IMG/VR virus record: IMGVR_UViG_3300010376_000813
Span: 1 to 39,216 of that record
DNA from: a virus
Taxonomy: Duplodnaviria > Caudoviricetes
Length of the DNA stretch: 39,216 nucleotides
Strand: one strand, 5' to 3'
The notes under the pieces were generated by a model that saw only the letters and a list, made by a program, of their open reading frames with translations, searched no databases and had not been told where the DNA came from. Positions 11,282 through 39,090 of this stretch are shown here, piece by piece. A program made the position numbers and the translations under genes. The stretch's first letter is position 1. The number at the start of each line of letters is the position of its first letter.

Positions 11282-11398
11282 CAGCAGTAACACTTTTTCT
11301 TAACGACTCTAACGAGATTCTGACCTCTTCTCTCTCCCTTGGAGAAATGAGACATGGCTCAAGCCTAATCAGCTTGGGCCATTTCCATTTTGGCCCAA
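11251..11398 (+). promoter_or_regulatory. Putative late promoter and structured leader (copy 1) ahead of the head operon
   Basis: AAAGAAAA 11251, TTGACA 11265, TAACACT 11288 (imperfect -10), GAGATTCT 11314, bulged hairpin 11329-11352, hairpin 11354-11382. Parallels 31881-32009. Confidence 0.65.
11354..11391 (+). terminator. Terminator-like hairpin in the leader
   Basis: ATGGCTCAAGC/GCTTGGGCCAT 11-bp stem (one G-U) followed by an interrupted T tract, TTCCATTTT. Confidence 0.55.
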
Positions 11399-11415
11399 CC
11401 TCGGAAGGAGAACTC

Positions 11416-15471: not shown

Positions 15472-16485
15472 GTGAGCCTCGCATCAATGATCGCCGAGCA
15501 GCGCGGAGCAGTCCCGAACTACTCCGGCGCACTCGCGCGGACTCACCTCCAGAACGCATGGACCGACATTCGCAATCTCAAGGGATGGAGCTGGCAACTT
15601 GGAGTCACAGGCTATACAGTCCCCGGCCTGCTCAACACAGGCTCAGTCACGACCACTCTCGGATCTCCATTTGTTATTGGAGACGCGGCGGCTTCGGCTG
15701 CATGGGCCACTGCTTCCAGCGCCGTATCGCTCATCACCCAGCGCCAATTCCGTACCGGCGCAGGCACAATCTACAACATCATCGCCTATGACACAACCTC
15801 CAACCCCCCCTTCGGCACCCTGACCCTCGACCGCCCCTGGATCGACGCCTACTATCTCGGCCCGACCCAAGGCTACTCAATCTACCAACCCTACATCGTC
15901 GCGCCGGTCTCGAATTTCCTCGCGTGGGAATTCTTTCTCGATGTCCGCAACGTGATCCATCTCGACGTGAACAACACGCGCGGACTCTGGGAGAAGGTCA
16001 ACGAGGCCGATCCGCAGCGGCAGATATTCTCAAACCCCGGCAACGTAATCCCTCACGGCGTCGATCAGCGCGCGGGCTCAGCAACTCTGGGCTACGCGAT
16101 GTACGAACTCTATCCCCAGCCACAGTCGATCTTCGTTTATCAAGTCGGATACTCCTTCTCCGGCCCCGACCTCACCAACACCTCCGGCCAGAGCGCTGTC
16201 CCCTTCCCGATGACCGAGCATCTGGTGAAGACACTCGCGAGAGTCAAAGCATATGAGTGGAGTGAGGCGAACAAGAATCCCGCGAATCCTCGTGGCGCGG
16301 GTGCTGACTACCGCTTCCTAATCGAGATCGCGCAGGCGGAGTATCAGGGACAGCTTAAGGAGATTCGTAAAATCGATCGCGACATCTACGACGCATGGCA
16401 GACCACGATGAAGCGGTACACGAATATCGGAGTCGTAAGTACATTTGACCCGGCAACCGGAACGGTAATGAGTAGAAATCTCTGA
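15472..16485 (+). CDS. Putative head-tail adaptor protein
   Basis: Helical N-terminus ending in WSW, beta insertion, ELYPQP..Y..Y motif and helical C-terminus; adaptor-like layout; AGGAG SD. Confidence 0.6.
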   Translation: MSLASMIAEQRGAVPNYSGALARTHLQNAWTDIRNLKGWSWQLGVTGYTVPGLLNTGSVTTTLGSPFVIGDAAASAAWATASSAVSLITQRQFRTGAGTIYNIIAYDTTSNPPFGTLTLDRPWIDAYYLGPTQGYSIYQPYIVAPVSNFLAWEFFLDVRNVIHLDVNNTRGLWEKVNEADPQRQIFSNPGNVIPHGVDQRAGSATLGYAMYELYPQPQSIFVYQVGYSFSGPDLTNTSGQSAVPFPMTEHLVKTLARVKAYEWSEANKNPANPRGAGADYRFLIEIAQAEYQGQLKEIRKIDRDIYDAWQTTMKRYTNIGVVSTFDPATGTVMSRNL

Positions 16486-17251: not shown

Positions 17252-17253
17252 CC

Positions 17254-17454: not shown

Positions 17455-17456
17455 TT

Positions 17457-17711: not shown

Positions 17712-17712
17712 C

Positions 17713-17982: not shown

Positions 17983-18011
17983 GATGCCGGAGCTTAATTC
18001 ATTTCGAAGGA

Positions 18012-18020
18012 TGTTAAAAT
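18012..18020 (+). promoter_or_regulatory. Extended -10 element (TGnTAAAAT) for the HNH gene
   Basis: TGTTAAAAT about 20 nt upstream of ATG 18040, followed by a GGAGG SD. Confidence 0.5.
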
Positions 18021-18039
18021 CGCTGTTGGGAGGAAGTTT

Positions 18040-18513: not shown

Positions 18514-18516
18514 ACT

Positions 18517-18705: not shown

Positions 18706-18887
18706 TGGCCAAGCACTCAGTAGGTGTCACTGGTGGCAACGCCAAACACCTCGTCAATCACACCCCAATCAGCGGGATCAAGCTCGCGGGCGAGACTCCC
18801 ACCAAGCCTGTTGTGGGGAAGATATTCAAGCTCGCGGGAGCGCCGAAGGCTCAGGGCGACCAGAAGAAATCGCGTAAGAGAGGATAA
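18705..18887 (+). CDS. Small basic protein
   Basis: GAGG SD, TAATG coupling; ends in KKSRKRG. Confidence 0.7.
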   Translation: MAKHSVGVTGGNAKHLVNHTPISGIKLAGETPTKPVVGKIFKLAGAPKAQGDQKKSRKRG

Positions 18888-24100: not shown

Positions 24101-24554
24101 TCAAGGCATCCTCACAGGCTCGACCGACGGCACTCTCCGCCAGATGTCCACAACCGGCCCTGAAGTTGTCACCGGCACCATTCTCTCCCCCGCTCTCGGC
24201 GGACAGGGATGGATGCAGTGTCAAGAGTTCACAGTTGAATATTCCTCAAACGCAAATGTCATCGTGACTCCGCTCGCCGCTGACGCTGGAAATGGATCAA
24301 TCAGCGCCAACCCAGTCACTCTCCCCTCAACCGGAGGAACGATCGCGAAAACAAAGGTGATCATCAGCGCGAATAAGTTCAAGCTGATGTGGTTTCAATT
24401 TCAATCGACCGACTCTACATTCCGCGTCTTTACCGAGGGATTCGTCTGTCGCGTGAAGTCGTGGGGCGTTAAGGAACCCTTCAGAAACTTGAATCCCTTT
24501 ATGATGTTGAATCCATATTTCCCATCAGTAGGCGGACAGGGAGGACAACAGTGA
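21144..24554 (+). CDS. Tail nozzle / DNA-stabilisation-like protein with inserted lectin-like domains
   Basis: 1136 aa, beta-rich. C-terminal half has propeller-type motifs (TLYWCK, LFSIKRAW, IFFRVDDGI, TLVFDEAAGGW); position matches P22 gp10/T7 gp12. Confidence 0.65.
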   Translation: MRKGFGGHDLSNPINRLLGKIALAVNVRAYVSGSITLRTALTNAIVTVSAGIQTVARLNDSTPAGPAQGYSYIIAGGTILHCVTVPAPPDPIATGMSGNPVSTVPFRPNASVQPWLYIGDGAPTPTGPLNFVTIDTEYAHNGTPTTFACSGMVKVRSDGLIYKMGIREPQWAPVVSTMGTTTTGTATLAATAVPWNNVGGVNSSYNYGQTNAADGTPPVIILTPTGSQTLQLTITGSATVNGSVQAPSAPGPQTSAYPGHFVTGACAIIVAAFTDGSGNVLTGSSPPIPFVASVGALVTLSIPVGAVQCQIGIDSSANTFSSNSGSFSLAWILTQSAIATAPSTIGLVTAYSWGDSPHSGPVATYLWKAPSDVGSGIPRTASTAPSITTNNSWQVDTTPAVVNSGVLPQWDTLLPNGTVSGDIPLFPAPFPQSAPLTNNFNTCMTGSIFFPSGGVYTLTLVYKDQIMLGIGGGVTASYASGVMPASYSPSGFNGQTISVASGLPLVFVSAINGGGTQQTTSLTLNVPGSGGIIQFEIDWDFWYHSGRSLVMTINGAVIKPVPSGARVNTSYISVYRSSLTGALSNPGPASTPQVTPVLDNTVTSPYSLDPQVDKVDYYRQDSGLPNYTYAVTGPNDGLGPVINGIQYNTPVTDSLSDLAISANPIAQFDNFEPFPSIDLPASGVLNISGGVATWVSGTHFNIRWLPGTVILVGTPTQLAYTSIRRPTSSTSWDFTGLTNPIPDGTNLTFNIAEPILAAQPLAYLGGPTDNINFIFAVGDPLRPGTLYWCKGSNLDSAPDTNQMDVTDPSEPLVNVVMSGGRGVLFSIKRAWVIMPNFFNAEATVTGTAGSTWTLQATSITRGLFIPRCLAVSGGGTIFFRVDDGIHASPGGLGSESITDGDLYPLFPHEGSTPSPIVRAGITIYPPNDAFPQRQQFHYNNGYLYWDHYGTDNAYHTLVFDEAAGGWIFDLYSVSVITHASNESESTQGILTGSTDGTLRQMSTTGPEVVTGTILSPALGGQGWMQCQEFTVEYSSNANVIVTPLAADAGNGSISANPVTLPSTGGTIAKTKVIISANKFKLMWFQFQSTDSTFRVFTEGFVCRVKSWGVKEPFRNLNPFMMLNPYFPSVGGQGGQQ

Positions 24555-24555
24555 G

Positions 24556-25317
24556 ATGAGCACCCCAACCCTCAACCCGCCCTCCCTGCGCTTCCCCTTC
24601 GAACTCGTCGGCCATCCGCGCGAGATCGTCGAAGCTCATCGTTTCGCCTTCAACGGCTTGCTCGATCTTAATCAGGCCGTCCGCGCGCTTAACACTAAGG
24701 TCAACACCAACACGACTTCAATCGCAGCCGCAGCGACGACGGTCAACACCGTTACGCAGATCATCTCGAACGCCCTTCCCGGCCTCGGGACGGTCAATGA
24801 CCAAACCGGCCAGACTTCTTACATCACCGTTCCTTCTGACAACGGCGCATTCCTAATCCTCTCTGACGCCTCTCCCGTCGCAGTCACCCTTACCATCCCT
24901 TCCTCCGGCCAGCCCTGGATGATGTTTACGATGAACTGGGGAGCGGGTCTGGTGACGTTCACCCCAGCTTCTCCTGCCTCGATCTCGTATATCGGGAACC
25001 TTCTCGCTTCCTCGATGACTCTGGCGCAGGGATACCAGACGCTCATCGTCTTCGACGGATTCAACTTCTACGCCGCAACCCTTCCCAGGGTTCCTGTTTT
25101 TGTTGACAGCGAGCATGTCACAATCACTGCTGGCTCGGGGACTCTGGCAAACACTCCGAATCCGGCCTCAAGTCTGCAATTTTATGCATGGAATACAGGC
25201 TTTGGAGCGACTTTACTCATTCAAGGCGTGGATTACAATCTGGCCGGAGCGGTCATCACGCTTACGGGAACCGCACCGCCTGCCGTGGGAGGGTACTATG
25301 CGTTTTACCGTATTTAG
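24556..25317 (+). CDS. Tail-associated protein (short coiled coil plus beta domains)
   Basis: LNQAVRALNTKVN coil; TSYITVPSDNG..VAVTLT and LIQGVDYNLAGAVITL motifs common in fibre proteins; no signal peptide, no Cys. Confidence 0.6.
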   Translation: MSTPTLNPPSLRFPFELVGHPREIVEAHRFAFNGLLDLNQAVRALNTKVNTNTTSIAAAATTVNTVTQIISNALPGLGTVNDQTGQTSYITVPSDNGAFLILSDASPVAVTLTIPSSGQPWMMFTMNWGAGLVTFTPASPASISYIGNLLASSMTLAQGYQTLIVFDGFNFYAATLPRVPVFVDSEHVTITAGSGTLANTPNPASSLQFYAWNTGFGATLLIQGVDYNLAGAVITLTGTAPPAVGGYYAFYRI

Positions 25318-26218
25318 TGTGTTGCTGGCATTCTGCTTGCCTTGTGTGGGCCAGAACCCTACCGGCAACGGAGGAACGGGCAAGAACTGGAGCGCGGCGA
25401 CGGGGATTCCGCAACTATTGAGTGGAACTTTCTCTCTCTTCAATACGACCTGTGCTTCTGCGTTGACCTTCTCCGCTGGAGCCTTCGGATGCAACGCCGG
25501 ACCTCTTCCAACCGGAAGCGGCACCACGAATTTCACTGCCCGCTGGACATCCTCATCAGCCCTCGGCATCGGAGCTATTCAGGATAACGGAACTCACGTA
25601 GGCATCAACATCGCTCCCAACGCTTCCTATGATTTGAATCTCAACGCAAGCATGGCGATCGGCCCTGCGACGGAAATGACTTTCTCGACCAATACGATTA
25701 CGGAGACCGTCTCGTCGCCGCTCACCATAAAAGCCAGCCTCGGGACGTTGAATCTCGATTCAACGAATGGAGATATATCGATAGCGGCAGGATCGGGTCA
25801 TAATCTTTTAGGGGAGGGTGCTGGTGATATCAGCGTTACCAATGGCAGCACAATGGGCATTCTCACGGGCTCTCTTACTAACTACGGTCTGGCCGCAGGA
25901 GTCCAGGTCAGCGACGGCTCGAACAACGTCTTCTGCATCCCTTCGGTCACCAGCGGATTCCCTGCCGGTTGCTACTTCTTCCCGGCAGCATCGACCGGAA
26001 CGCACATCCTTGACGCAGGAAGCACGCTCTATGTATCTCTCGACACATCAAGTCTTGTCACCAATAGCCCAGATTTGAAGTTTCCCGACGTGGCCAGCGG
26101 AACCTTTGGCGTCATCACCGCATTCTCGACAGGCCACGCGCTATGCGAGAAGACCGACCACTCCATCGGTCACTGCACGACCGTCGTAAGCGCAACGGGA
26201 ACCTGCACCTGTACGTAA
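25298..26218 (+). CDS. Signal-peptide-bearing fibre-like protein
   Basis: GGAGG SD before ATG 25298; MRFTVFSVLLAFCLPCVG|Q; GSGTTNFTARWTSSSALG..IQDNGTHVGINIAP fibre motif; 8 Cys in the predicted mature part. Confidence 0.7.
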   Translation: MRFTVFSVLLAFCLPCVGQNPTGNGGTGKNWSAATGIPQLLSGTFSLFNTTCASALTFSAGAFGCNAGPLPTGSGTTNFTARWTSSSALGIGAIQDNGTHVGINIAPNASYDLNLNASMAIGPATEMTFSTNTITETVSSPLTIKASLGTLNLDSTNGDISIAAGSGHNLLGEGAGDISVTNGSTMGILTGSLTNYGLAAGVQVSDGSNNVFCIPSVTSGFPAGCYFFPAASTGTHILDAGSTLYVSLDTSSLVTNSPDLKFPDVASGTFGVITAFSTGHALCEKTDHSIGHCTTVVSATGTCTCT

Positions 26219-26228
26219 AGGAGGCTTT

Positions 26229-26675
26229 ATGCTCAAGATCATACTCATGCTTGCAGTCCAGCTCGGGACTCCATTTGCTTACTCCGGACCAAACCAGAGT
26301 GCCGTCAGCGATACGTTTGCAGCGGTGGATTATTACGTCAACTACCCGCTCAAAAACCAGATGGTTATCACCATCGACTATGGGACGGCGACCACGGCAA
26401 CCGGTAACACTTCCGTGTTTACCCATGACCCCTCTAGGCAAATTCACTGGCTGATGAACTGGCAGACGCTTACGTGGACTGCGGTCAGTGGGAACATTAG
26501 CCAAACAGGTACCATCTCGGCAGCCGACATCACGGCACTTCAGACGGCTCAGGCCTCCGGGCAAATTGCGATCTATAACGAACTGGAAACTCTGGCCGTA
26601 CAGTATGGGATTCTGGGAACCGGCACGACTATCTTCCCCTGGACAGCGCAACCGACTCCGACGAATTTCAAATAG
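26229..26675 (+). CDS. Hypothetical protein with probable signal peptide
   Basis: GGAGG SD; MLKIILMLAVQLGTPFA N-terminus; follows the fibre-like gene. Confidence 0.65.
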   Translation: MLKIILMLAVQLGTPFAYSGPNQSAVSDTFAAVDYYVNYPLKNQMVITIDYGTATTATGNTSVFTHDPSRQIHWLMNWQTLTWTAVSGNISQTGTISAADITALQTAQASGQIAIYNELETLAVQYGILGTGTTIFPWTAQPTPTNFK

Positions 26676-26719
26676 CAATTCGCCAATGAAATAACCTTTG
26701 GTAGTACGATGGAGGGCAT

Positions 26720-26755
26720 ATGGGCGGATTCCTAAGCGCAATATTCGGCGGCTCA
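26720..26755 (+). pseudogene. Orphaned duplicate 5' end of gene 26779-27300
   Basis: GGAGG + ATG encoding MGGFLSAIFGGS, versus MGGFLASIFGGS at 26779; out of frame, stops at 26825-26827. Confidence 0.8.
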
Positions 26756-26778
26756 TTCGTATCAAAGCGAGGTCATTT

Positions 26779-27300
26779 ATGGGTGGCTTTTTGGCGAGTA
26801 TCTTTGGAGGAAGCAATCCTACCCTGAATCAAGATATCTCGAAGATCGGCAAACTCAGCGACTTCTCGACTAACGCTGGCGAGCAGGGGACAACTGCGGC
26901 CCTGAACTACGATCTCGGCCTGCTCTCGGGCGACCCGACCAAAGTTGCCGAGACTCTCGCTCCCGAGACTCAGCAGGCTCAGCAACAAGCCCAACAGGGT
27001 AAGAACACGATCGCTCAGTTCTCGAATCGCGGGGGAGGGTCGAATGCGGTTATGAACTCGCTCGACGACGCGACCCGCGCCAAGCTCTTGTCGCTGACCG
27101 GGGGATTGCGACAAGGGGCTGCGGGCCAAGCTGGGCAACTCGGTACTGCGAATCTCGGCTTGGCCCAAAACGCTACGATGGATCAGTCGAAGCTGGCGCA
27201 GGAGCGATTCCAGAACTGGATGAATTCTATTCTCGGTAAGGGCATAACCGATATCTCTAAGACGGCTCTCAATGCGGGTGAAGCCGGGTTAGGATTGTGA
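26779..27300 (+). CDS. Putative ejection (internal virion) protein, P22 gp7-like position
   Basis: Gly/Ala/Gln-rich; amphipathic MGGFLASIFGG N-terminus; GAGG SD before ATG 26779. Confidence 0.6.
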   Translation: MGGFLASIFGGSNPTLNQDISKIGKLSDFSTNAGEQGTTAALNYDLGLLSGDPTKVAETLAPETQQAQQQAQQGKNTIAQFSNRGGGSNAVMNSLDDATRAKLLSLTGGLRQGAAGQAGQLGTANLGLAQNATMDQSKLAQERFQNWMNSILGKGITDISKTALNAGEAGLGL

Positions 27301-27301
27301 C

Positions 27302-29119
27302 ATGGGCGGCGTAAGTCAGGCATGGGCGGAAGCTGGGCAACAGGCTGAGGAACGCAGGCAGCAGCGGAATGCGATTCAGGAACAACAGCGCGTTCAGCAG
27401 CAGAACACCGTCGGCGCGCAGCTTCTCGACGCGATCAACCAATCCTCCAACATCAAGCCAACGATGAAGGATGAGCAGGGGAATGTTGTCGATAACCCTG
27501 CCTATGCGCAAGCCCAGATCGATCGCCGCAATCTGCTCGCCCAATACACCGCCCTCAACTCTCCCGAACAGCACGCCTCCTTCGGGCAGCGCCTTCACGG
27601 ATTGATCTTCGGCCACCCCACCGATCAGAAACGCGAGCCAGCCCTCAGCCCCGCAGGAGCCGAGACTCCCCAACCTCCAGCCGCAGCATCCCTAATGGCC
27701 CCCAACGCTGCTCCTCCCGCTCCTCAGCACCCGATGGCCGCTCCCAATCCCGAGACCGAAGCGCTGCTCGCGAAGGGTCAGGGGTTCATGGATAAGCTGA
27801 AGAATCACATGGCGGCTTTCGCACATCCTCTCCCCGCTCAGCCGAAGCCCGATGTCGCGACGATTGCGAAGTATTATCGTGATCCAAGTGAGGTTCAATT
27901 CCAACGCAATCTAGAAATGTGGGGACTGCGGGGACAGACCGCAGAGGATGTCGCGCGTATTCGCTCGAACTATGCCCTTCTCAACACGCCGGAGAAAATG
28001 CGCTTGGACTCTGGCGCTCGCGCTCTTGGCTACGACGGCTTCATGAATACGCCGCCCGATATTCAAGACTCACTCCTCAAGCAATACAAGAGTGCAACCA
28101 CTCTCCCCACATGGAAAGCAACAGAAGAAGGCAACGACATCTACGCTGTTGATGCTCACGATCCCTCAAAACGTCAGTTGATCGGGCACAAGGACGACAC
28201 AACGCAGCATCTCGTCTACAAGACCATGACGATGCCGGATGGAACAGAGTATGAAGTTCCCTTCGTTGAATGGACAAAGAAAGGAAGTTCTACACCACCA
28301 ATCACGACACAGGCGTCTCCTGCAGATGTAAAGCGCTTGGCGGGTCAGACGGCTGCTCCTTCTCCGGCATCATCTGCAACTCCTGCCATCCCCTCAACCA
28401 CTCCAGCAGGAGTTAGCGGTACTTCAAGCCCAGAGCCAATTACCAGCGTGGTACCTCCTGCGCTCGCGCAAACCAACGCACAGATCGCGACAGCCAATGC
28501 AACATCGAAGAAGCTCAACAAAGGAAAGCCTTCTCCTGCGTCTGCCAAAACTCCCCTCCCTCCCGGCGTCCCCAAGGGCGCGATTCCGTTCGGCGCGAAA
28601 GAAAGCCCTGAAGCCAAGGCAGATCAGGCTGCTTATACAAAGGCGCTCGAAGACTCTCAACAAAAACAGGCAGCTTTCCAGAATGCTCAAGGACTGCTAG
28701 ACGACAAAAATCGCAAAACCGATCTCGAACTGATCTACGCCTGGGTCCGCTCAAACGTTCAAGGCGCAGGCCGTATGACCAATGCGGAGATTCAGCAAGC
28801 TGCAACCGCTGGATCATGGGGCACGCGAATCCAGAATTACTTCAGCATTGCTTCAACTGGCCGCTTATCTCCTGAGATCGAACAGGAGTTCATGACCGAG
28901 ATCAAGCGGGCAAACGACACAGCCCAAAGTCAGGTAGCGACTCTCAAGACGCAGCTTCAGCAGGATCTCAATCCAAGTTCTCGAAATGCCCCCGCTGCGC
29001 CGGGGGCATGGAAGCCTCCAGCAGACGCGCCTGCCCCTACTAAAGTCGGTCAAGTCCTCAAGGTTGATGGAAATGTAATTGCGAGGTCTGCCGATGGCAA
29101 AACATGGAGCCAACCCTGA
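27302..29119 (+). CDS. Putative ejection/DNA-transfer protein
   Basis: 605 aa; Gln/Ala/Pro-rich helical with long disordered linkers; second of three successive genes. Confidence 0.55.
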   Translation: MGGVSQAWAEAGQQAEERRQQRNAIQEQQRVQQQNTVGAQLLDAINQSSNIKPTMKDEQGNVVDNPAYAQAQIDRRNLLAQYTALNSPEQHASFGQRLHGLIFGHPTDQKREPALSPAGAETPQPPAAASLMAPNAAPPAPQHPMAAPNPETEALLAKGQGFMDKLKNHMAAFAHPLPAQPKPDVATIAKYYRDPSEVQFQRNLEMWGLRGQTAEDVARIRSNYALLNTPEKMRLDSGARALGYDGFMNTPPDIQDSLLKQYKSATTLPTWKATEEGNDIYAVDAHDPSKRQLIGHKDDTTQHLVYKTMTMPDGTEYEVPFVEWTKKGSSTPPITTQASPADVKRLAGQTAAPSPASSATPAIPSTTPAGVSGTSSPEPITSVVPPALAQTNAQIATANATSKKLNKGKPSPASAKTPLPPGVPKGAIPFGAKESPEAKADQAAYTKALEDSQQKQAAFQNAQGLLDDKNRKTDLELIYAWVRSNVQGAGRMTNAEIQQAATAGSWGTRIQNYFSIASTGRLSPEIEQEFMTEIKRANDTAQSQVATLKTQLQQDLNPSSRNAPAAPGAWKPPADAPAPTKVGQVLKVDGNVIARSADGKTWSQP

Positions 29120-31005
29120 TGCCGACTAAATACACAGTCGAAGACGCTCCAGCCAAGACATCGCAGTATACAGTTGAGGATGCGCCTGCGGCTCAGCCAC
29201 CTCCTCCTGCTCCGCTCGCCCGTACATTCGGCAACTACGCAGGAGAGTTATTCGGCGGAATTGGTCACGGACTCGTCAACATGGGACAGGGACTTTATCA
29301 GACTTTTACCTCTCCCCGCGCTACCGCTCAGGCCGTTGCCGATCAAGCCGACATTGCCCAACAGGAAGCATGGAAGGACTACAACGCGAAGAAGAACATC
29401 GTCCCGAAATGGATGGCAGCTACATCAGGGCTTCTCACTGGGCTTGAGAATGCTCCTATTGTCGGCGGCGCAGTTCAGAAAGCCGAGACTGGAGGAATTG
29501 CGTCTCCTGAATCAGTCGGTGCAGCGGGAGAACTTGGCACTTACGCCATCGCTCCAGAGATGGTGAAGAAGGCTCCTGCGGTGCTAAAAAAAGGCGCTCA
29601 AATACTATCGAACACTACTCCTCGAATCTCTGAAGAATTGGCCGCAGACACCGCCAAGAAGAATGCTGAAGTGTCTACAAAGAACGCTGAGATTCAGGCA
29701 AAGGCTGACGCTGCACGCAAAGCCCAAATTGAGCAGCATTTCGAAAAGCGCCAACAGGTCCGCGCACAGAATGAGGCAACTCAAGCAGCACAATCGCGTA
29801 AAGCCGCATTGGAGCGCGGCGTCGAGCAACTCGATCCGAAATTTCAAGACGATCTGAAAGCAACTGAGAAAAATGTTCGTGCTCAGGCTAATCAAAAGTA
29901 CGATGCTGTTCGCAAAGCAACTGCAGGAGAGACAGTTCCTTCGGCTTCTCTTGCTGAAGCCGTCAAGACAGCGGAAGAAAAGATCGCAGGCTCAAGCGAG
30001 AACCTCAAAATATTTCGCGACATCCTCTCTAAGCATCCTGAAGGCGAGCCGGAAGCGATTGAATATCAAGGCGCGCAAATCCCAAAAGGCCATCCTCTCT
30101 ATGAGGTGCTGAAAGAGGGATCAGAAGCAGCAACCAAGCCTGCAACTTTCAATGACCTTCAAGGCTATTATTCTGAATTAGGCGACAAACTCTCGACCGG
30201 CAATCTTCCCGGCGATGTCTATCAAGCAATGAAGTCGCTGCACGATTCCGTTGGTGGGTTGATGCAGCAGATGGCGGAGTCGAAGGGTGTGGGAAATATT
30301 CTCTCTGACGCACAAAATTTTTATCGTCAGTACATGCAGGCATTCCGCGATTCCAAGTCTCCACTCAATAAGGCGATGAAGGCCACAGAGAGGGGCGGCG
30401 CAGTCAAGATGCTTCAAGGGAAGGATCAATCCGGCATCGAGACTCTCGCCCGCTATAACCCTGAACTTGCTCAGCGCGTGAATACTATTCGCGGCTACCA
30501 GGCCGAAGCGAAAGGAATCATCTCTAAGACTGCCGCACCCAAACCCGAACCATCTCTCCCTTCAAAGACACAGCCAAACCTAGAGGAGCCAAAGAAGATC
30601 GGCCTTCAGGATATCTCTGATGCGAAGGCAAAGGCGATCGAGGATCAGGTTAGATTCCTGCGCCGCCGCATGTCCTATCTCTCTGGGGGTTACGGAGCGT
30701 ATCAGATTCTTCATTCAATCATCAGCGGTAATCTATCTGGAACCGTTACTGGAGCAGCTCTGATTGCCGCTCCCTATGTTCTCTCTGAGGCGCTTGATTC
30801 GCCTAAGATCGTTCAAGCCCTGACAAAGCCGACTCCCGCCGACATTGCACAGATTCCGACAGAGCTTCGCGGCAGTGATCTCTCTACTATCGTGAAGGCG
30901 GCGGAGGCGAAGGGAATCAAGGTCCATCCTGCGGTTAAAGCGCTTGCACTTCATGCAGCAGGAGAATGGACAGCGGCAGCGGGAACGACAGCAAAAAAGA
31001 AATGA
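29119..31005 (+). CDS. Putative large ejection/DNA-transfer protein
   Basis: TGATG coupling at 29117-29121; duplicated YTVEDAPA at the N-terminus; Ala/Lys-rich helices; two Gly/Ala-rich hydrophobic regions. Confidence 0.55.
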   Translation: MPTKYTVEDAPAKTSQYTVEDAPAAQPPPPAPLARTFGNYAGELFGGIGHGLVNMGQGLYQTFTSPRATAQAVADQADIAQQEAWKDYNAKKNIVPKWMAATSGLLTGLENAPIVGGAVQKAETGGIASPESVGAAGELGTYAIAPEMVKKAPAVLKKGAQILSNTTPRISEELAADTAKKNAEVSTKNAEIQAKADAARKAQIEQHFEKRQQVRAQNEATQAAQSRKAALERGVEQLDPKFQDDLKATEKNVRAQANQKYDAVRKATAGETVPSASLAEAVKTAEEKIAGSSENLKIFRDILSKHPEGEPEAIEYQGAQIPKGHPLYEVLKEGSEAATKPATFNDLQGYYSELGDKLSTGNLPGDVYQAMKSLHDSVGGLMQQMAESKGVGNILSDAQNFYRQYMQAFRDSKSPLNKAMKATERGGAVKMLQGKDQSGIETLARYNPELAQRVNTIRGYQAEAKGIISKTAAPKPEPSLPSKTQPNLEEPKKIGLQDISDAKAKAIEDQVRFLRRRMSYLSGGYGAYQILHSIISGNLSGTVTGAALIAAPYVLSEALDSPKIVQALTKPTPADIAQIPTELRGSDLSTIVKAAEAKGIKVHPAVKALALHAAGEWTAAAGTTAKKK

Positions 31006-31931
31006 TCCTCACCTCCGAAGACTTCCACAACCACGACTTCTGCCCCCGCTTCCGCCAGTACGACTCCCGCTACGCCCGCCTGCGCATCTCCCTCCCTCGC
31101 GCCCTGTCCGAAACCCTCGATTACGCCATCGCGAAATCCGACCCCTCCCTCGCCCGCCCCTACCTGATGTCCCTCGCCACCAATCCCGGCCTGGACCTAA
31201 CCGCGCGCAACCTCTACCGCATCGTCATCCATCACGCGAGCCTTCTCGAACTCCTCGCAACCTACATCCTCGCGGTCTCAACCGTCACCCAGCCCGAGCC
31301 GATCTCAATGCCTTGGGGCGAATACCGCTCCTGCCCGATCCTGCGCGATGGCCGCCTCCGCCGTATCCTTCTCGTCGATCGCTGGACTGCCGACGCCGAA
31401 GCCCGCGAGAGCTGGTCGTGGCGCACCGCCGCCGAGACCGCGATCACAGGCCGCGCGATGCTTTTGAACATCTTCCTCATCGGGCGCGCGAACGACTCCG
31501 GCATCCGCACCTCACCGTGGACGATGGGCTATAAGCATCCCGTTAATGGAGTGCTCAGGATCAAGCGGCATAATGATGAATATGATCAGAAGCGCGAATT
31601 TAAGGACACCTGGGAGAAGGTCTATCGCGAGAACACCGATCACAAGCCGATGCACTGGCTGGGTATGATGCAATCCGACGACGCCTTCAAGGGATGGATT
31701 CAATCCACCACCATCGACACCCCGCCGAATCGCGCGGAGATTCTCGATCAGCTCGCGGAGAGGGTGCGTGAGATTCACGCTAACCATCCGCGCCAAAACC
31801 GCGCCTCCTGCTTCAAGCTCCGCCCCTGCGCCTTCAACCCCGCCTGCCTTACCGACCAGTCCCCCGCTGCGATGGGCTGGAAAGAAAAGGAGATAGACGT
31901 TCCCCTCGCCTCGATGTTAAGCTGTCCGTAA
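31002..31931 (+). CDS. Cas4/AddB-like (PD-(D/E)XK_1) protein, catalytic motif apparently degenerate
   Basis: N-terminal CPR plus C-terminal C-x5-C-x5-C (CFKLRPCAFNPAC), as in Fe-S staple nucleases. ATGA-coupled start at 31002. Confidence 0.55.
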   Translation: MILTSEDFHNHDFCPRFRQYDSRYARLRISLPRALSETLDYAIAKSDPSLARPYLMSLATNPGLDLTARNLYRIVIHHASLLELLATYILAVSTVTQPEPISMPWGEYRSCPILRDGRLRRILLVDRWTADAEARESWSWRTAAETAITGRAMLLNIFLIGRANDSGIRTSPWTMGYKHPVNGVLRIKRHNDEYDQKREFKDTWEKVYRENTDHKPMHWLGMMQSDDAFKGWIQSTTIDTPPNRAEILDQLAERVREIHANHPRQNRASCFKLRPCAFNPACLTDQSPAAMGWKEKEIDVPLASMLSCP

Positions 31932-32009
31932 CTATCATGAATTGAGATTCTCCGCCGCTCCACCGGGAGATCCGGCGAATGGCTCATGACTTCGGTCATG
32001 GGCCTTTTT
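31881..32009 (+). promoter_or_regulatory. Putative late promoter and structured leader (copy 2) ahead of the fibre operon
   Basis: AAAGAAAA 31881, TAGACG 31894, TGnTAAGCT 31915-31923, GAGATTCT 31944, bulged hairpin 31953-31977, terminator 31981-32009. Confidence 0.65.
31981..32009 (+). terminator. Intrinsic terminator with cUUCGg tetraloop
   Basis: GGCTCATGAC-TTCG-GTCATGGGCC followed by T5. Confidence 0.88.
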
Positions 32010-32029
32010 GCGTTTGGGAGGAATTGAAG

Positions 32030-35000
32030 ATGAAGTGGATAAACCGAATTCTGCTGACTTTCCTCCTGCTCTCTCCTCTTACGGCTCTCGGCCAGACGGA
32101 CGGATTCAATGGCTTCTGCACTACCGGCAATGTGAAAGTTACGACCTCAGGGCTGACCTCCACAACTACGGTTCAGCAATCCTATCCAAAGTGTACGGTG
32201 ACGGTTTATCTCACCGGCACGCTGACCAAAGCGACCATCTTCAAGGACGCGCTCGGTACTGCGCTCGGCAATCCTTTCACCGCCAACACCGACGGCTCAT
32301 GGCTGTTCTTCGCCGCCGATAACCAAGGCTTCGATGTAACGATGAGCGGAGGAGTTGCGCCAAATGTCTTCGCGATTCCCTTTACCCTGACCGATCTCAA
32401 GGTGGGCTCAGGAGGAGGTACGACTGCTGGTTGTCAGGGCACTCTTCCCGGCGACAATACCTCCACAAATTGCGGCTTCGGGAACCTCGTGGCCAACACC
32501 ACTACTCCCCCGGCCAACACAAGCAGCTTCGGCTATTCGTCGATCGACACGAACGCCTCGACAAACATCGTTGCGGTCGGGAATACTAACGCGAACAATA
32601 TCAGCACGTTCTCAGGCGACGTGGTAGCGATTGGCGACAACAATGCTCACTACCTCACTGGAGCGGGGACTGATGTTGCTGTCGGATATATCAACTTCGT
32701 CGGGACAGTTTCGAACCCCTGCCGCCTTTTCAACGTAGTCGCGGTGGGGCAGCAGAACATCAATCCTTGCCCACAGGGGACTGCAGGTGCGAATACCGGA
32801 GATATCGTAGCGGTAGGCGATAACAACTTCTCGTTCAACGGAGTCACGGAGCCCAGTTACCGGCTGGGAAATGTGGTCGCTGTCGGAGACAACAATTTCA
32901 TCCCTGCCACTACCAGCAATGCCATCGGTGCGATTGACACTCTGTGCATGGGCAACAATTCCTGCGCGAACATCAGGGCAACGCTGAATACAGATCTTGT
33001 CGGGATCGGAGACGCATCGCTGACCGGATATGCCGGGAATTCTTCGAATACAACTCCGTGGAATGACATCGTTGCCATCGGAGACGCCTCGGGAATTAAT
33101 CTGCCAAATACTGCCGGATTCATTGTCGGCATCGGCCTTTCCTCTGCTGTCGGCTGTCAGTCAGGCAACTCCAGTTGTACTCCCGGCTCGGCCACAATGC
33201 AGTACATCGTCGGCATCGGAGAAAGCTCCGGCGTGAACCTCCAGGGAACCGACGTTGTGGCTATCGGCGACAGCGCAATGACGGGATTCTTCGCTTTGTC
33301 GAACCCGACTCCCTTCACCGGCCACGACGCGATTGCGATTGGCAACCATGCCTGCACCTCTCTGACGACCGGAACAGACAACATCTGCATCGGCGACTAT
33401 GCCGGGTCAATTGGCTATGACGGAGTAAGCACCAATGGGAATGCGAATAAGACCGGCATCCGCAACGTCTGGATCGGCGACACTGCGGGGCCAAACACAA
33501 CCTCCCAGTTAAACAACACCATCGCCATCGGATACCAAGCATACGTCACTGCCTCGAACCAGATCACTCTTGGCAACTCCTCGAATACCCTGACGATCCC
33601 AGGACTTGCAGGCGTAGGCACCTATTGCCTCAAGGTGGACACGAGCGGCAACGTCACCAACACCGGAGCAGCTTGCGCAACTGCATCCTCTCCGCTGACC
33701 ACCAAAGGCGATATCTGGGTTTACTCATCGGTCGATACCAGACTGCCAGTAGGAACGAATGGACAGGTTCTCAGCGCTAATTCTGCTCAGACTACAGGGC
33801 TTCAGTGGATCTCCGCGTTGACAAATCCCATGACCACTCTAGGCGACATTATCTACGGCGGAGCGGCAGGCGCGGCAACAAGACTGGCAGGCAATACCAC
33901 TGCCTCAACTCTCTGCCTCGTACAGACTGGCACTGGATCAATCTCCGCTGCTCCTTCATGGTCATCCTGCGCAGGCTCAACCTCGACTGCTCTCTCTTCA
34001 GTCAGCGCAGCCTCGACTAACGCGACGATCGCGAACGGGAATAATCCCATCGTATGGAACTGGGCGCAGACTACCAACTCTCAGACTGCGTTCACATTCG
34101 GCGAGACCTCCGCTGCTACGGGGACTAGCGATATCGAGCTAGCAGTTACGACCGCTACTGGCTCAACCGCCATTCCAGTCGTTATCACGGAATCGCTCAA
34201 CTCTGCTCAGACTATTCCGGCGCTCGAAGTTCTCCCGACATGGAATACAACTGGGGTGGTGGATGCGGCGATCCTCGTCAATGCGACTAACACCGCATCA
34301 GGCGCGGCGTCAAAGCTGCTCGACCTTCAAGTCGGAGGGTCATCGAAGTTCTCAGTAGACAAGTCCGGCAATGTCCTTCAGGCAGGAACGCTGAACTCAA
34401 CCTCCGTCGGTGGAATCACTGTCAGCGGAACTCCCTCTGCGAATCAAGTCCTAACCGCGACTTCATCGAGCGCCGCGAATTGGCAAGCGCCGCCGGTTAC
34501 GTCGGTATCAAACTCCGACTCGACGCTCACGATCTCGCCCACCACCGGAGCGGTAGTCGCCTCAATCAACCTCGCTCACGGCAACACATGGTCAGCAACG
34601 CAGACTTTCAACTCCGTCACCCTAAGCTCGATCACCGGCTCCACGCAATGCCTTCAGGTCAACGCGTCGGGAGCGGTGAGCGGAACCGGAGCGGTCTGCG
34701 GATCGGGCGGAGGCGGAGCAACCGCATGGAGCAGCCTTACCAACCCCACGACCGCGCTCACCCTGTCAATGGCCGCGAACTCCTCGACCTTCACCTACAA
34801 CGCCGCAACCGGCGCCGGAGACCTCTACAAACTCACCGACACCACCGGGAATACCGGGACGGGGAGAATCCTCCGAGTCACCACGGCCTCGGGATCGACC
34901 GAGAATCCCTTCCAGGCTGATGCGAATGGGGTGGGATGGCAAGTCACCTCCAGCGGAACTCTTCAGACGGTGGGCTTCACCGGAGCTGGAGAATTAGTTC

Positions 35001-36700
35001 TTGGCGAAGGCTCTGCGCCTGCGGGCTCAGCGGGCAATGACCTGATCTGGGGAGATGCCACGACTCACCGGCTGAGGCTGAATCCGAACAATGCTGGGGC
35101 GGTGAGTCTTGGGGGAATTGCAACCGCTGGCAGTGCTGGAGATTCCATAGTCCTCACTGCCAACGGAGTAGATTACGTAGATTCTAAAACTGCCACTGTG
35201 TTTGCCGCATCGGGCGATACCTCTTGTGCAACAGACTCAGCCGCACTTCAAGCGGGAATTACAGCCGCGCAAACTTCTGGAATCCCAATGCAACTACAGC
35301 CGGGAATATTCTATGCAGACAACTTGAGCGTTACCGGCCCAATCGTCTTTCGAGGCTCAGGAGGACACGCGACGATTATCAAGAATTGCAGCACTACCAA
35401 CAACGTCTTCACCCTCGCCTATCACACTTCGGCAGGCGGCGACCCATCCCAATCCGAAGCCATATTCTCAGATTTCGATGTCACGATGAAGAGTGGCGTT
35501 AATCCGACTGCGGGATATGGATTTCAGATCAGCAACGGAGGGACTGGATATCTCTCTGGCTTGCACCTTCAAGCCGTAAGCATGAGCGGCATCTGGCAAC
35601 CATTCCTTCTTGGCACAGGAGTAATCACTAACTGGATAAAGGATTTATCTACCATCAATTGCGTAAGTAATATCGGCATTGAATACAACACCGTAAGCCC
35701 TGGAGGAGATTACTGGATCAGCGACTTGAATCTCCAGAATTGCTCTCTTCAGATCGATCAAGCCGATACAACGACTTTCAACAACCTGAAGATCAACGTC
35801 CCAGCATCAGGAACAGCGGTTAAGTTTACTCAGGCTGGTTTTACCTCAAGAGTGCGCTTTATCAATCCGTCTATCGAATCTACAAGTACTGCTTGCTACG
35901 ACTTCGGCACGGGATCGAACAGTCCTAGTCAAGTACAGATTGTGGGTGGCGGATGTGGACTCGGCGCAGGAGCGATGTTTGCTAACGTAGGGAATGCCGT
36001 TCTCTTGCAATACATAACCAACGATTACACGACTGCGGACGGCAATCCCGGTCCTGTGGCTTCGGGCTGGCTGTGGCCGACCATCAACGCCACAAGCCTA
36101 GTGTTGTCCAGCACCACGCTTGCCAGTTCCAGTATTACAAACAGCGATGCAGCAGGCACGGGCACGGTTGGCTATTCGCTTTCAGACGACAACATCAACG
36201 GCTCATTCCAGGGTTTCGGCCCCAACTTCATTCTAGACCCAACGCTGAAAAGCAAGATAGCTTTTGGTCCCAACAACACAACCGCTAACGGGCTAGTCCT
36301 CTTCGGCACCAGCGGAGCGGTATCGGGGAATACGAATACCATCGACTTCAGGCCGGGAGGATACGCCGGAGCTGCCCGGACCCTGATTCTCGACAAGAAC
36401 CAGATCGAGCAGTTGGCGATTACGAATATGCTGTCGCAGACCGTGGTGTCATCAGCAACAACCATTGCTCCCACGTCACAGGCATTCCATGTATCGGGAA
36501 CCACGACAATCCAGACCATTACTGCACCGACAGCATGTATCACGGCGGGGCAGATGTGCCAGATTACGATCATCCCGGATGGAATCTTTGCAACCAACAC
36601 CAGTGGGAACATTGCACTTGCCACAGCCGCAACGGTGGTCGGAAAGGCGCTGATTATGACCTACGACCCCGGCACAAGCAAGTGGTATCCGAGCTATTAG
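32030..36700 (+). CDS. Large tail fibre/tailspike (1556 aa) with N-terminal signal peptide
   Basis: GGAGG SD before ATG 32030; MKWINRILLTFLLLSPLTALG|Q; VTVYLTGT..ATIF..NPFTANTDG anchor-type domain; VAIG repeats; LTTKGDI..RLPVGTNGQVL fibre motifs; DSAALQAGI..PGIFY beta-helix entry. Confidence 0.8.
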   Translation: MKWINRILLTFLLLSPLTALGQTDGFNGFCTTGNVKVTTSGLTSTTTVQQSYPKCTVTVYLTGTLTKATIFKDALGTALGNPFTANTDGSWLFFAADNQGFDVTMSGGVAPNVFAIPFTLTDLKVGSGGGTTAGCQGTLPGDNTSTNCGFGNLVANTTTPPANTSSFGYSSIDTNASTNIVAVGNTNANNISTFSGDVVAIGDNNAHYLTGAGTDVAVGYINFVGTVSNPCRLFNVVAVGQQNINPCPQGTAGANTGDIVAVGDNNFSFNGVTEPSYRLGNVVAVGDNNFIPATTSNAIGAIDTLCMGNNSCANIRATLNTDLVGIGDASLTGYAGNSSNTTPWNDIVAIGDASGINLPNTAGFIVGIGLSSAVGCQSGNSSCTPGSATMQYIVGIGESSGVNLQGTDVVAIGDSAMTGFFALSNPTPFTGHDAIAIGNHACTSLTTGTDNICIGDYAGSIGYDGVSTNGNANKTGIRNVWIGDTAGPNTTSQLNNTIAIGYQAYVTASNQITLGNSSNTLTIPGLAGVGTYCLKVDTSGNVTNTGAACATASSPLTTKGDIWVYSSVDTRLPVGTNGQVLSANSAQTTGLQWISALTNPMTTLGDIIYGGAAGAATRLAGNTTASTLCLVQTGTGSISAAPSWSSCAGSTSTALSSVSAASTNATIANGNNPIVWNWAQTTNSQTAFTFGETSAATGTSDIELAVTTATGSTAIPVVITESLNSAQTIPALEVLPTWNTTGVVDAAILVNATNTASGAASKLLDLQVGGSSKFSVDKSGNVLQAGTLNSTSVGGITVSGTPSANQVLTATSSSAANWQAPPVTSVSNSDSTLTISPTTGAVVASINLAHGNTWSATQTFNSVTLSSITGSTQCLQVNASGAVSGTGAVCGSGGGGATAWSSLTNPTTALTLSMAANSSTFTYNAATGAGDLYKLTDTTGNTGTGRILRVTTASGSTENPFQADANGVGWQVTSSGTLQTVGFTGAGELVLGEGSAPAGSAGNDLIWGDATTHRLRLNPNNAGAVSLGGIATAGSAGDSIVLTANGVDYVDSKTATVFAASGDTSCATDSAALQAGITAAQTSGIPMQLQPGIFYADNLSVTGPIVFRGSGGHATIIKNCSTTNNVFTLAYHTSAGGDPSQSEAIFSDFDVTMKSGVNPTAGYGFQISNGGTGYLSGLHLQAVSMSGIWQPFLLGTGVITNWIKDLSTINCVSNIGIEYNTVSPGGDYWISDLNLQNCSLQIDQADTTTFNNLKINVPASGTAVKFTQAGFTSRVRFINPSIESTSTACYDFGTGSNSPSQVQIVGGGCGLGAGAMFANVGNAVLLQYITNDYTTADGNPGPVASGWLWPTINATSLVLSSTTLASSSITNSDAAGTGTVGYSLSDDNINGSFQGFGPNFILDPTLKSKIAFGPNNTTANGLVLFGTSGAVSGNTNTIDFRPGGYAGAARTLILDKNQIEQLAITNMLSQTVVSSATTIAPTSQAFHVSGTTTIQTITAPTACITAGQMCQITIIPDGIFATNTSGNIALATAATVVGKALIMTYDPGTSKWYPSY
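32500..33580 (+). repeat. Degenerate protein-level repeats (V/I-A/G-V/I-G-D-N/A), YadA-head/beta-roll-like
   Basis: IVAVGNTN, VVAIGDNN, IVAVGDNN, VVAVGDNN, LVGIGDAS, IVAIGDAS, VVAIGDSA, TIAIGYQA and others; boundaries approximate. Confidence 0.7.
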
Positions 36701-38632
36701 ATGATGAAAAGACTGCTCATCCTCGCCCTTCTCCTCACGCCTCTCGATGTGGCTGGGCAGGTCATCAATGCCGCTTCGTGTTCCTCTACGGACGTACAGA
36801 CAGCATTCAATTCTGTCATCAGTTCGACTACGACGGTGAACATCCCGTCTGGCACTTGCTCCTGGACTACCCAGGTAACGCTGACCGTCCCTTCGGGCAA
36901 TACCAGCCTCACCGTCCAAGGGCAAAGCTCAATTGCGACCAATGACGCAAATGGAAACCCCGCTACGTTCAACGATGTAACGATCATTACCGACAACTAC
37001 ACGACGCAGAGCGGGATGCTGGTCATCAACACCAATTCGAACGCCTCTGGAATAGTAAGATTTACCGGGATCACGTATCAGGCTGGAACCGGACCACCGA
37101 CAAGCTCCGGCTGGCAAATCATTTCGCTTGGCTCGGGCTCCGAGCAATTCCGATTCGACCACAATCACCCCATGGTGCTGTCATCGTCCGGCCAGACTTT
37201 CATGCGCATCAATGGATGTACTCCCGGCGTGGCTGACCACAATCTCGTTGATCTGACTTCGAACAACAATGGAATCCAGGAGTGGAATCTTGGATCGTGC
37301 TATTCCGATTCTCTTGGCGAAGGCGATCAGGCATGGGCGCACCCTACCGGGTTTGGCACAGCCAGCGCCTTCTTCCTCGAAAACAATACCTTCAATAATG
37401 GGTTTGCAAATGATTGCTATATGGGCTCCTACGTGTTCCGTTTCAACACCTTCAATGAGAACGCGAACACGGCATCAGCGATCCAGACTCATCCGACCGG
37501 TGGAGCGGGCAGAATTCGAGGCTGCCGGTCAACGGAAATCTACAAGAACACCATGAACGTGACCTCGTTTATGAATGCGGCGGTGTTCTTCTCATCCGGC
37601 CCAGGGATGATCTGGGGCAACCCCTGCGCATCGAGTTCTGCCTCTGGAGGTGTGGGGTGCAAGCAATGGGTGCAGATAGAGTCCATCCGGACAAGCAACG
37701 TCACCTATACGCAGACCGCAACGCCGAACGGCTGGGGATACTGCGGTACGGCATTCAACGGAACCGGATCGAACTGGGATGGCTCGAATTCCACTTCAAG
37801 CGGATATCCATGCATCGACCAGCCCGGACGTGGGCAGGGAGATTTGCTGGTCAACGATTTCCCAAACACCACCAATAACGCCACTGGATGTACCTCGTCT
37901 TCGGCCTGCGCCTATCCCCGTCAGGCTGTCGAGCCTGTGTATGTGTGGTCTCTGGCATCGCAGGAATGGCAGCCGGTTCCGAACAATACCTCGAATTACG
38001 TTGGCATAGGCGTAGGGTCTGCCGACCTGACCCAGAATGTGGACTTCTATACCGGTGCCGACAACAGCGGGAATCTGATCTCGTTTACCGGAGCAACCGG
38101 GGTTGGCGTAGGAACCCGTGCATCCAGACCTGCATCGACCACAAACGGCGTGGCGTATTGGGCAACGACCGATTCAGGATCGGGCGTAACCTGGAACAAC
38201 GGCGCACCGAATTCAGGGTGTCTCGATAAGGTCGTCTCAGGCGCATGGGTGAACTGCTTCTATACTCCCTACGCCTATCCTCATCCGCTAATCTCGGGAG
38301 GAGTCGCAGCGGTTCCTACGTACACTCCCGGCACGGGAACCTACACCGCTCCCCAGACCGTAACGATCTCCTCAACGACTTCAGGAGCCACAATCTGCTA
38401 CACGACTGACGGATCGACTCCGACCGCAAACGGCGCTGGAACCTGTACCCACGGTACGACATACGCCGGAACCATCACGGTCTCAACTACCCAGACCGTC
38501 AAGGCTGTGGCCTCAAAATCAGGCACCGTTGATTCTTCAGTCGGAACGGCGGCGTTCACTATCAATCAAGCTCCTGCTCCGGTGATGTTCCTCGGGCCAA
38601 TTCAAATGATCGGAAAGGTGACTATTCCATGA
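36701..38632 (+). CDS. Secreted-type beta-helix protein with C-terminal chitobiase/Fn3-associated Ig-like domain
   Basis: MMKRLLILALLLTPLDVAG|Q; INAASCS..DVQTA, FRFDHN, ENNTF, FRFNTF beta-helix rungs; PTYTPGTGTY..TISSTTSGATICYTTDGSTPT..TVKAVA domain. Confidence 0.8.
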   Translation: MMKRLLILALLLTPLDVAGQVINAASCSSTDVQTAFNSVISSTTTVNIPSGTCSWTTQVTLTVPSGNTSLTVQGQSSIATNDANGNPATFNDVTIITDNYTTQSGMLVINTNSNASGIVRFTGITYQAGTGPPTSSGWQIISLGSGSEQFRFDHNHPMVLSSSGQTFMRINGCTPGVADHNLVDLTSNNNGIQEWNLGSCYSDSLGEGDQAWAHPTGFGTASAFFLENNTFNNGFANDCYMGSYVFRFNTFNENANTASAIQTHPTGGAGRIRGCRSTEIYKNTMNVTSFMNAAVFFSSGPGMIWGNPCASSSASGGVGCKQWVQIESIRTSNVTYTQTATPNGWGYCGTAFNGTGSNWDGSNSTSSGYPCIDQPGRGQGDLLVNDFPNTTNNATGCTSSSACAYPRQAVEPVYVWSLASQEWQPVPNNTSNYVGIGVGSADLTQNVDFYTGADNSGNLISFTGATGVGVGTRASRPASTTNGVAYWATTDSGSGVTWNNGAPNSGCLDKVVSGAWVNCFYTPYAYPHPLISGGVAAVPTYTPGTGTYTAPQTVTISSTTSGATICYTTDGSTPTANGAGTCTHGTTYAGTITVSTTQTVKAVASKSGTVDSSVGTAAFTINQAPAPVMFLGPIQMIGKVTIP

Positions 38633-39090
38633 TTCGGAAGATCGCAATCACTTTCCTAGTCCTCTTCGCTCTCAGAGCCGGAGGTCAGACTCTTGGTTCG
38701 GATGGAGGGATCAAGACTACATGGTACTTTTCGGGGACTGCTCAGAACTGCTCGACAACCACCACCACCAACTGCATTTCGAGCTATACCGAGACCTTCA
38801 CTCCTCCGCAGAGCCAAGCAGTTACGGTGATCACCATCCCCACCGCGCTCTGCGCTGCTCCAGCGACTAGTTGTATCCAGAGTGGCACGGGAGCCAGCAC
38901 ATCTCCCTATCTCTCTGTATGGCGACCGGGAGGGAAACTTTACTGCGGCCAGTGGACCATTACGCTGACTGCGAACTGGCTGGACGGGAACGGGAATCCT
39001 CAAGCACTGACTGCGCAGGGGGCGATGAATGAGCCGTGCCCTTTCACGGGAAGCGCCCCCACCGGGCTGGGCGTAACTCCGATCCCGTAA
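38629..39090 (+). CDS. Small secreted-type Ig/Fn3-like protein
   Basis: MIRKIAITFLVLFALRAGG|Q; six Cys; ends in SAPTGLGV; ATGA-coupled. Confidence 0.72.
   Translation: MIRKIAITFLVLFALRAGGQTLGSDGGIKTTWYFSGTAQNCSTTTTTNCISSYTETFTPPQSQAVTVITIPTALCAAPATSCIQSGTGASTSPYLSVWRPGGKLYCGQWTITLTANWLDGNGNPQALTAQGAMNEPCPFTGSAPTGLGVTPIP

Follow-up and report, generated by a model that had tools for sequence, protein, structure and literature searches.

To our knowledge, the morphogenesis of tailed phages is taken as wholly cytoplasmic. The tailspike of podophage P22 is the last component added to the particle, and in vitro it attaches to tailless heads (bioRxiv 2021.09.20.461090; PMC3741392); it is described as having no signal peptide, presumably as export is unneeded (bioRxiv 10.64898/2026.09.13.751334). 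Here we analyse the contig of a soil podovirus, IMG/VR record IMGVR_UViG_3300010376_000813 (39,216 bases, spanning the complete virus record and hereafter called the window), in which open reading frame (ORF) 32030 (32030..36700, plus strand, as are all features below; proteins are named after the start of their ORF) encodes a 1556-amino-acid tailspike- or fibre-like protein with a predicted Sec leader (residues 1–21), a head-binding-type domain (residues 22–125) and mosaic fibre modules. Leaders were called throughout with a heuristic rule of our own and not with SignalP; among 99 core virion protein homologues from nine related genomes, this rule gave a single positive call. The N-terminal beta-sandwich domain is the one found in podophage tailspikes (Pam1, 7eeq; Pan3, 9vyg; P22 gp9N, 8eb7/8tvr; Sf6 gp14N, 7sg7), variable receptor-binding modules follow it in those proteins as in 32030, and the window genome also encodes a podovirus adaptor; compared with these tailspikes, 32030 adds the 21-residue Sec-type leader, two invariant Cys within the domain and about 13 close Cys pairs. 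A particle-binding-type domain, which normally starts at residue 1, thus stands behind a predicted export signal. Sequence statistics give good support to export and oxidative folding, and attachment to the particle is likely by analogy with known tailspikes; we favour, with moderate confidence, the reading that 32030 is a tailspike-like protein that would be exported, disulfide-folded in the periplasm and docked on finished particles at lysis.

Virion proteins with Sec leaders are familiar from filamentous phages, M13 pIII and pVIII both carrying them, and the receptor-binding pIII forms disulfides in the periplasm. These two proteins remain membrane-anchored and are incorporated during non-lytic extrusion, whereas the window proteins have no anchor (no second hydrophobic segment) and belong to a lytic tailed phage with a cytoplasmic head and tail. 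An inovirus-type coat does not match what was found, the window having terminase and adaptor genes and its relative G001 an endolysin. Among tailed phages, Cellulophaga phage phi18:3 encodes three proteins (gp085–087) with leaders ending before Gln that carry the GenBank label 'structural protein, based on experimental MS/MS proteomics' (tandem mass spectrometry), next to nine other proteins annotated by mass spectrometry that have no leader. Like the window cluster, gp085–087 are encoded by three consecutive leader-bearing genes, are cut before Gln and lie upstream of lysis-type genes; unlike the 32030 family, they come from a phage of a Bacteroidota host, show no homology to it and contain few Cys (0, 1 and 3), and the GenBank record is silent on leaders. 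Independently of the 32030 family, they hint that proteins with leaders do reach the particles of tailed phages. In the structure preprint of the archaeal virus HFTV1, no passage deals with secretion, signal peptides or disulfides, and the relevant passages of the phiCbK paper concern lysis proteins only. No account of exported tailspikes of tailed phages was found in the literature searched, a search that mostly left out subscription papers and bioRxiv supplements.

The same arrangement occurs in cultured phages. Tunturi 1 and 2 (PP887698 and PP885685) encode homologues of the window terminase, portal, capsid and adaptor proteins and of proteins 18891 and 21144, together with a leader-bearing gp12 that carries the domain. 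Core proteins, among them the portal, major head and tail proteins shared with Tunturi 1, a podovirus of Tunturiibacter, are 27–35% identical between these phages and the window, and the Tunturi cluster follows the adaptor gene. In Tunturi 1, leaders were found on gp12, 13, 14, 16 and 17 right behind this gene, with the domain on gp12, and the protein in the slot of 24556 is 98 amino acids long. Both phages reach 1e8–1e9 plaque-forming units per mL on a cultured soil host, and the main text and supplementary tables of the paper describing them do not mention signal peptides, the word 'signal' occurring in reference titles only (PMC11924767). Cellular records carrying the head-binding-type domain of 32030 were confined to three Acidobacteriaceae genomes; because these are the only ones, and because homologues of the window proteins occur in Tunturi 1, the host is likely an acidobacterium.

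The conserved 104-amino-acid N-terminal domain (32093..32404) was related to tailspike head-binding domains by both profile and fold, and its position directly behind the leader strengthened the view of the initial annotation, in which this domain was not named, that the 1556-amino-acid protein is a fibre. A profile built from 30 family members matched 9vyg, the tail spike of Pan3, at E 9e-5 and 7eeq, the head-binding domain of Pam1, at E 0.022. With the AlphaFold model of the domain (predicted local distance difference test score, 89.9) as query, 9vyg and 7eeq occupied ranks first to third in Foldseek (E 0.011–0.039), and VIA placed 7eeq first (Z 8.5; root mean square deviation, rmsd, 2.4; 79 aligned residues), with P22 gp9N at Z 7.3–7.5 and Sf6 at Z 7.1; unrelated prealbumin-like domains scored within 1–2 Z of these head-binding matches. 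The profile also matched residues 11–72 of leaderless proteins of Serratia phage MTx, E. coli phage ECO1230-10 and Pseudomonas phage Orisa03 (three of three checked), the first two being annotated tailspikes and the third a tail-region protein. Domain residues Cys9 and Cys34 are invariant in 45 aligned proteins. No Pfam domain, and in particular no membrane anchor, was matched in 32030, whose 26 Cys fall into 13 close pairs. Residues 179–413 contain seven [ND]hVA[VI]G repeats, which we take to be YadA-head-like and which suggest a trimer. Strain differences were seen in sequencing runs X3 and X4, the 40 best supported of 82 all falling within 32030 and 36701, as expected of diversifying receptor-binding genes; sites in the window lie at 32758–32797, 34234–34255 and 38200–38584.

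The domain family is large, comprising 2,648 clusters at E<=1e-10 and, at the looser threshold of E<=0.001, 5,233. We examined 193 of its proteins (63 together with 130 further ones taken from the 150 top profile matches), and in 178 a leader directly precedes the domain; the remaining 15, with no leader detected, comprise seven whose starts were called too late, four truncated proteins and four missed by the rule. The domain was kept in all 192 relatives of 32030, while no later 50-residue block of 32030 was matched by more than 17 of them and the C-termini across the family are unrelated, a conserved anchor with a variable tip being the pattern of fibres. A domain scan of 30 family proteins recovered GDSL esterase and beta-helix modules in five, Beta_helix being found in one of the 30. 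By profile position, Ala stands at −1 in 123 of the 178 leader-bearing proteins and Gln at +1 in 139, and 172 of 189 have Gln at the residue that opens the domain or beside it. Mature Cys numbers are even in 175 of 189 complete family proteins, compared with 28 of 73 core leaderless proteins that contain Cys, and also in 68 of 79 leader-bearing cluster proteins; these parity counts are drawn from related sequences, which, however, have little in common beyond the first 100 residues. Such figures bear on the idea of a leader that stays uncleaved and tethers the protein to the membrane or delays its folding, the proteins staying on the cytoplasmic side and joining particles by the ordinary route. 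Leader calls that are heuristic and a cleavage site predicted from sequence leave some room for this, but the Ala–Gln preference is a cleavage-site pattern, the bias towards even Cys is expected only for oxidatively folded proteins, and the leaderless homologues, two of the three with odd numbers of Cys (11 and 13), lack the conserved Cys pair context. We regard such a tether as very improbable.

All five ORFs to which the initial annotation had ascribed signal peptides (25298, 26229, 32030, 36701 and 38629) were recovered at the coordinates it gave, and each begins with a basic n-region, an uncharged hydrophobic core and small residues at the predicted cut, more weakly so in 26229. The 9-residue mean hydropathy of the five leaders is 2.76–3.16, and that of the other 21 of 26 scored window proteins does not exceed 2.16. 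The predicted mature N-terminus is Gln in 25298, 32030, 36701 and 38629, and the mature Cys counts of these four are all even (8, 26, 16 and 6 respectively). Clustering of Cys in close pairs, also proposed from the outset, exceeded chance in 32030 (p=0.0001), 25298 (p=0.012) and 36701 (p=0.025); in 38629 it did not (p=0.34). Likewise, the proposed contrast with Cys-free virion proteins is true of the major capsid protein, 24556 and three ejection-like proteins, all with no Cys, but not of the leaderless nozzle-like protein 21144 (nine Cys), 18891 (five), the portal (four) or the terminase (ten); since leaderless proteins too contain Cys, it is parity and spacing rather than presence that discriminate. 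None of the four Cys-rich proteins has a second hydrophobic segment, the leader being their most hydrophobic 19-mer. NxS/T sequons seemed abundant, yet in none of the five proteins does their number depart from chance (z −0.4 to 1.2), and N-glycosylation was discarded. Pfam and PHROGs provided no name for any of the five, except for the Fn3/CHB_HEX_C domain of 36701.

A leader shared with the head operon had been noted initially, and one motif indeed has exactly two occurrences in the window (11355 and 31980), where two-hairpin late-gene leader elements precede the head operon (11314..11400) and 32030 (31944..32029) respectively. Relatives carry up to six copies each (four to six in G008, G014 and G006), in front of genes for terminase, head, tail and ejection proteins, and one copy in G006 precedes the leader-bearing spike gene; the spike operon of G001 has a more divergent copy that falls outside the search pattern. 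The element consists of the hairpins followed by a T-run and a ribosome-binding site. Across 24 copies the two hairpins are 95.5% paired and seven of 17 pairs have changed on both sides, figures that lean in favour of the structure as it was derived from the same alignment and the copies are related. The element has no Rfam match and may serve the phage in late-gene antitermination or in the control of translation.

Flanking host DNA, which had been named as a possible source of the region from 32030 onwards, was refuted: the 31931/32030 junction is bridged by contigs from runs X2, X3 and X4 (three studies, none of them that of the possible source run), and relatives carry the cluster in the tail module or before lysis genes. 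A misassembly at this junction was rejected from the same bridging contigs and from the gene order of G001, a complete relative (61.8 kb, with terminal repeats) in which an exonuclease-like gene is likewise followed by four leader-bearing Cys-rich genes and then by lysis genes including an endolysin. A survey of related phages had been called for in the initial annotation. In eight of nine genomes the leader-bearing genes are flanked by the adaptor gene and the 18891 homologue (the placement in one of them, G015, comes from a single analysis); in the remaining genome, G001, they precede the endolysin. The leader-bearing proteins might instead reuse fibre modules at the surface of lysogens or infected cells, where they could act as adhesins, mask receptors or serve as decoys for superinfecting phage. 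YadA-head-like repeats are common to fibres and autotransporter adhesins, one relative is classed as a provirus, and a domain cassette adjoins an integrase in a Tunturiibacter chromosome with no detectable adaptor gene. Against such a role stand the lack of a second hydrophobic segment in the four Cys-rich proteins, the placing of 32030 under the same leader element as the head genes, and the clear plaques of Tunturi 1, for which no integrase is annotated (PMC11924767); we consider it distinctly unlikely.

The initial annotation had further treated the five leader-bearing proteins as one class of receptor-binding fibres. Its interpretation held for export and oxidative folding, through sequence statistics across a large family, and for the fibre reading, through the head-binding domain, but the single class did not survive: only 32030 has a recognisable particle-binding domain, the 36701 family has bacterial-type members, and 26229 is free of Cys. 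Protein 25298 (25298..26218; 306 amino acids, with a predicted leader and eight mature Cys) is encoded in the tail operon and is fibre-like. Because its C-terminal Cys knob also ends six domain-bearing proteins, it appears from its sequence to be a fibre-module protein without an anchor. The public gene call begins at Met119 and misses the leader; a strong ribosome-binding site is present only at Met1, the in-frame coding log-odds of residues 19–117 is 0.28 (−0.29 to −0.72 in the other five frames), and residues 22–61 match a fibre-family protein. The 148-amino-acid protein 26229 (26229..26675) has the weaker leader, no Cys and no relatives that we could find, and its membership in the system is uncertain. 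Protein 38629 (38629..39090; 153 amino acids, predicted leader, six Cys) has no true relative among those searched, two matches (E 1e-4) having been rejected as they are located in an unrelated leaderless gene.

Protein 36701 (36701..38632) is a predicted exported beta-helix protein of 643 amino acids with 16 Cys and an Fn3_assoc/CHB_HEX_C_1 domain at residues 543–618. Its identification as a fibre was rejected in favour of an enzyme-like beta-helix of bacterial type; judged from sequence, it is likely a glycan-degrading enzyme, and its similarity to beta-helix lyases (scores 0.80–0.86) is a lead only. The family comprises 569 proteins, with leader-bearing members at 42–52% identity, and because several of the best 120 sit on contigs of 0.3–1.15 Mb it includes cellular secreted proteins. 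Viral homologues occur in leader-bearing clusters inside structural modules, e.g. between the adaptor and the 18891 homologue in L134, and no homologue was found in three Acidobacteriaceae genomes with 36701 as query. We read 36701 as a putative bacterial-type secreted enzyme recruited by phages. Among its best 120 homologues, 58 end in a P-x-x-P-x-x-L strand, which presumably resembles the first strand of an Fn3 domain, and six in a G-x-h-x-h-x-G motif. A G-x-h-x-h-x-G-x-h-x-h hexapeptide motif, a possible docking strand, forms the C-terminus of 36701 itself (window 38596–38629) and is found at the C- or N-termini of leader-bearing proteins of several relatives, where it replaces the P-x-x-P-x-x-L of cellular-type homologues. 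When adaptor C-termini were compared with this motif, that of G009 fitted the pattern and that of the window did not, and no partner is claimed. The P-x-x-P-x-x-L strand in 36701 homologues (P0201–P0318) and an APTGL in the C-terminus of 38629 are possible sorting or donor-strand signals in these bacteria.

Enzymes of this type raise the alternative that the exported proteins never join the particle and are soluble depolymerases or glycan-binding helpers, freed at lysis to clear capsule or biofilm for the progeny, with the domain acting as a folding or trimerising cap. Besides the apparently cellular secreted members of the 36701 family (leader-bearing, 42–52% identical, on contigs of up to 1.15 Mb), the GDSL esterase and beta-helix modules in five of 30 family proteins and the absence of the docking domain from four of the five window proteins agree with it. 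It fits poorly with a docking-type domain that is the only part kept in 192 of 192 relatives (other blocks of 32030 being common to 17 at most), with genes lying within the tail module in eight of nine relatives, and with the phi18:3 leader-bearing proteins annotated from virion MS/MS. Free helpers appear unlikely, if less so than the other alternatives.

Elsewhere in the window, a terminase is encoded at ORF 6300 (PHROG match, E 1.5e-4), and the predicted fold of ORF 15472 (15472..16485) resembles the podovirus tail adaptors A4 and Pa223 (VIA Z 11.6, rmsd 3.5–3.7, about 185 aligned residues), so that this leaderless protein, identified from its modelled fold alone, is taken as the podovirus tail adaptor and a candidate docking partner. 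An inserted beta domain at adaptor residues ~52–140 is like tailspike and tail-tube domains (VIA Z 6.5–7.4) and is a possible fibre dock. From its position and size, the leaderless conserved tail protein 21144 (21144..24554; 1136 amino acids) is probably nozzle- or hub-like and a second candidate docking partner. PDB sequence searches with 15472, 18891 and 21144 gave no match below E 0.06. Protein 24556 (24556..25317) is leaderless, Cys-free and needle- or fibre-like with a conserved N-terminus, and offers a cytoplasmic alternative for host recognition. Between the adaptor and 18891 (17069–18887) lie several short Lys-rich ORFs, like the small basic proteins of Tunturi 1 (gp25), and insertions resembling HNH or PD-(D/E)XK endonucleases are scattered among the structural genes (114–602, 13901–14428, 16485–17072, 18040–18513 and 20230–20766). 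Upstream of the terminase (595–4393), the window encodes two FkbM methyltransferases, a GT2 and a PLOD-type glycosyltransferase and a galactosyltransferase-like protein; similar genes occur in G009, G014 and G018, with a possible role in modifying particles, DNA or the host surface.

In the exported-tailspike reading that we favour, 32030 would be expressed late with the head and lysis genes, as the shared leader element and the gene order suggest, exported by Sec and cut by signal peptidase before Gln, as predicted from its sequence. Disulfides would be made by host DsbA-like and VKOR enzymes, a step consistent with Cys parity and with the enzymes of related hosts (Thioredoxin_4 in three of three and VKOR in two of three Acidobacteriaceae genomes with the domain), and the protein would, by homology, form a trimer. 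It might then attach to the adaptor or nozzle at or after the moment when lysis opens the inner membrane, much as P22 heads take up purified tailspike in vitro. The least certain step concerns 25298, 36701 and 38629, which have no docking domain and may either be carried on the spike or particle through different contacts or work as free helpers.

Several observations weigh against this reading. Support for cleavage, disulfides and particle presence of the 32030 family is sequence- and model-based, not experimental. No Foldseek match of the domain model reaches E 0.001, and the fold is a common one, transthyretin-like and CnaB domains from secreted proteins of bacteria (Z 6.5–7.7), and pilin domains as well, tying with P22 in VIA; here the tailspike identity is preferred because the profile matches annotated leaderless tailspikes by sequence. 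Just one of the five window leader proteins has the domain, three of the nine related genomes (G015, G016 and G018) have leader-bearing clusters without it, and the window offers leaderless candidates for host recognition in 24556 and in a large insertion of 21144. The chromosome of Tunturiibacter gelidiferens (L091:6337-14440) has an integrase followed by a cassette whose first gene is leader-bearing and encodes the domain, with no adaptor gene found in the genome; the cassette may be a remnant, a satellite or domesticated. Leaders are absent from 22 structural-region proteins of Tunturi 3, a podovirus infecting the same host strain, and from 17 of the siphovirus Tunturi 4, and export is for this reason not required to infect Tunturiibacter. 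Finally, the phi18:3 proteins are non-homologous and Cys-poor, and mass spectrometry of a particle preparation may include co-purifying protein.

We advance more tentatively, at somewhat short of even confidence, that a large lineage of tailed phages splits its assembly, the head and tail core being cytoplasmic and all large receptor-binding parts being secreted, stapled by disulfides in the periplasm and added to the particle at lysis. The spike bearing the head-binding domain would be the hub, and enzymes captured from the host secretome would be hooked on by short beta-strand motifs at their termini, such as that of 36701. The cultured Tunturi 1, with the same arrangement, makes export and docking directly testable. 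For annotation, caution is advisable, as phage genes with leaders are often taken for host cargo and the leader itself can be lost in gene calling, as happened with 25298. If export and docking do occur, Sec, signal peptidase and Dsb/VKOR would be needed for part of the virion, spikes could be swapped or picked up by particles outside the cell, and phages of a large domain family (the 2,648 clusters of the stricter threshold), infecting an abundant soil phylum, could recruit the disulfide-dependent secreted enzymes of their hosts as receptor-binding modules with no need to evolve them anew.

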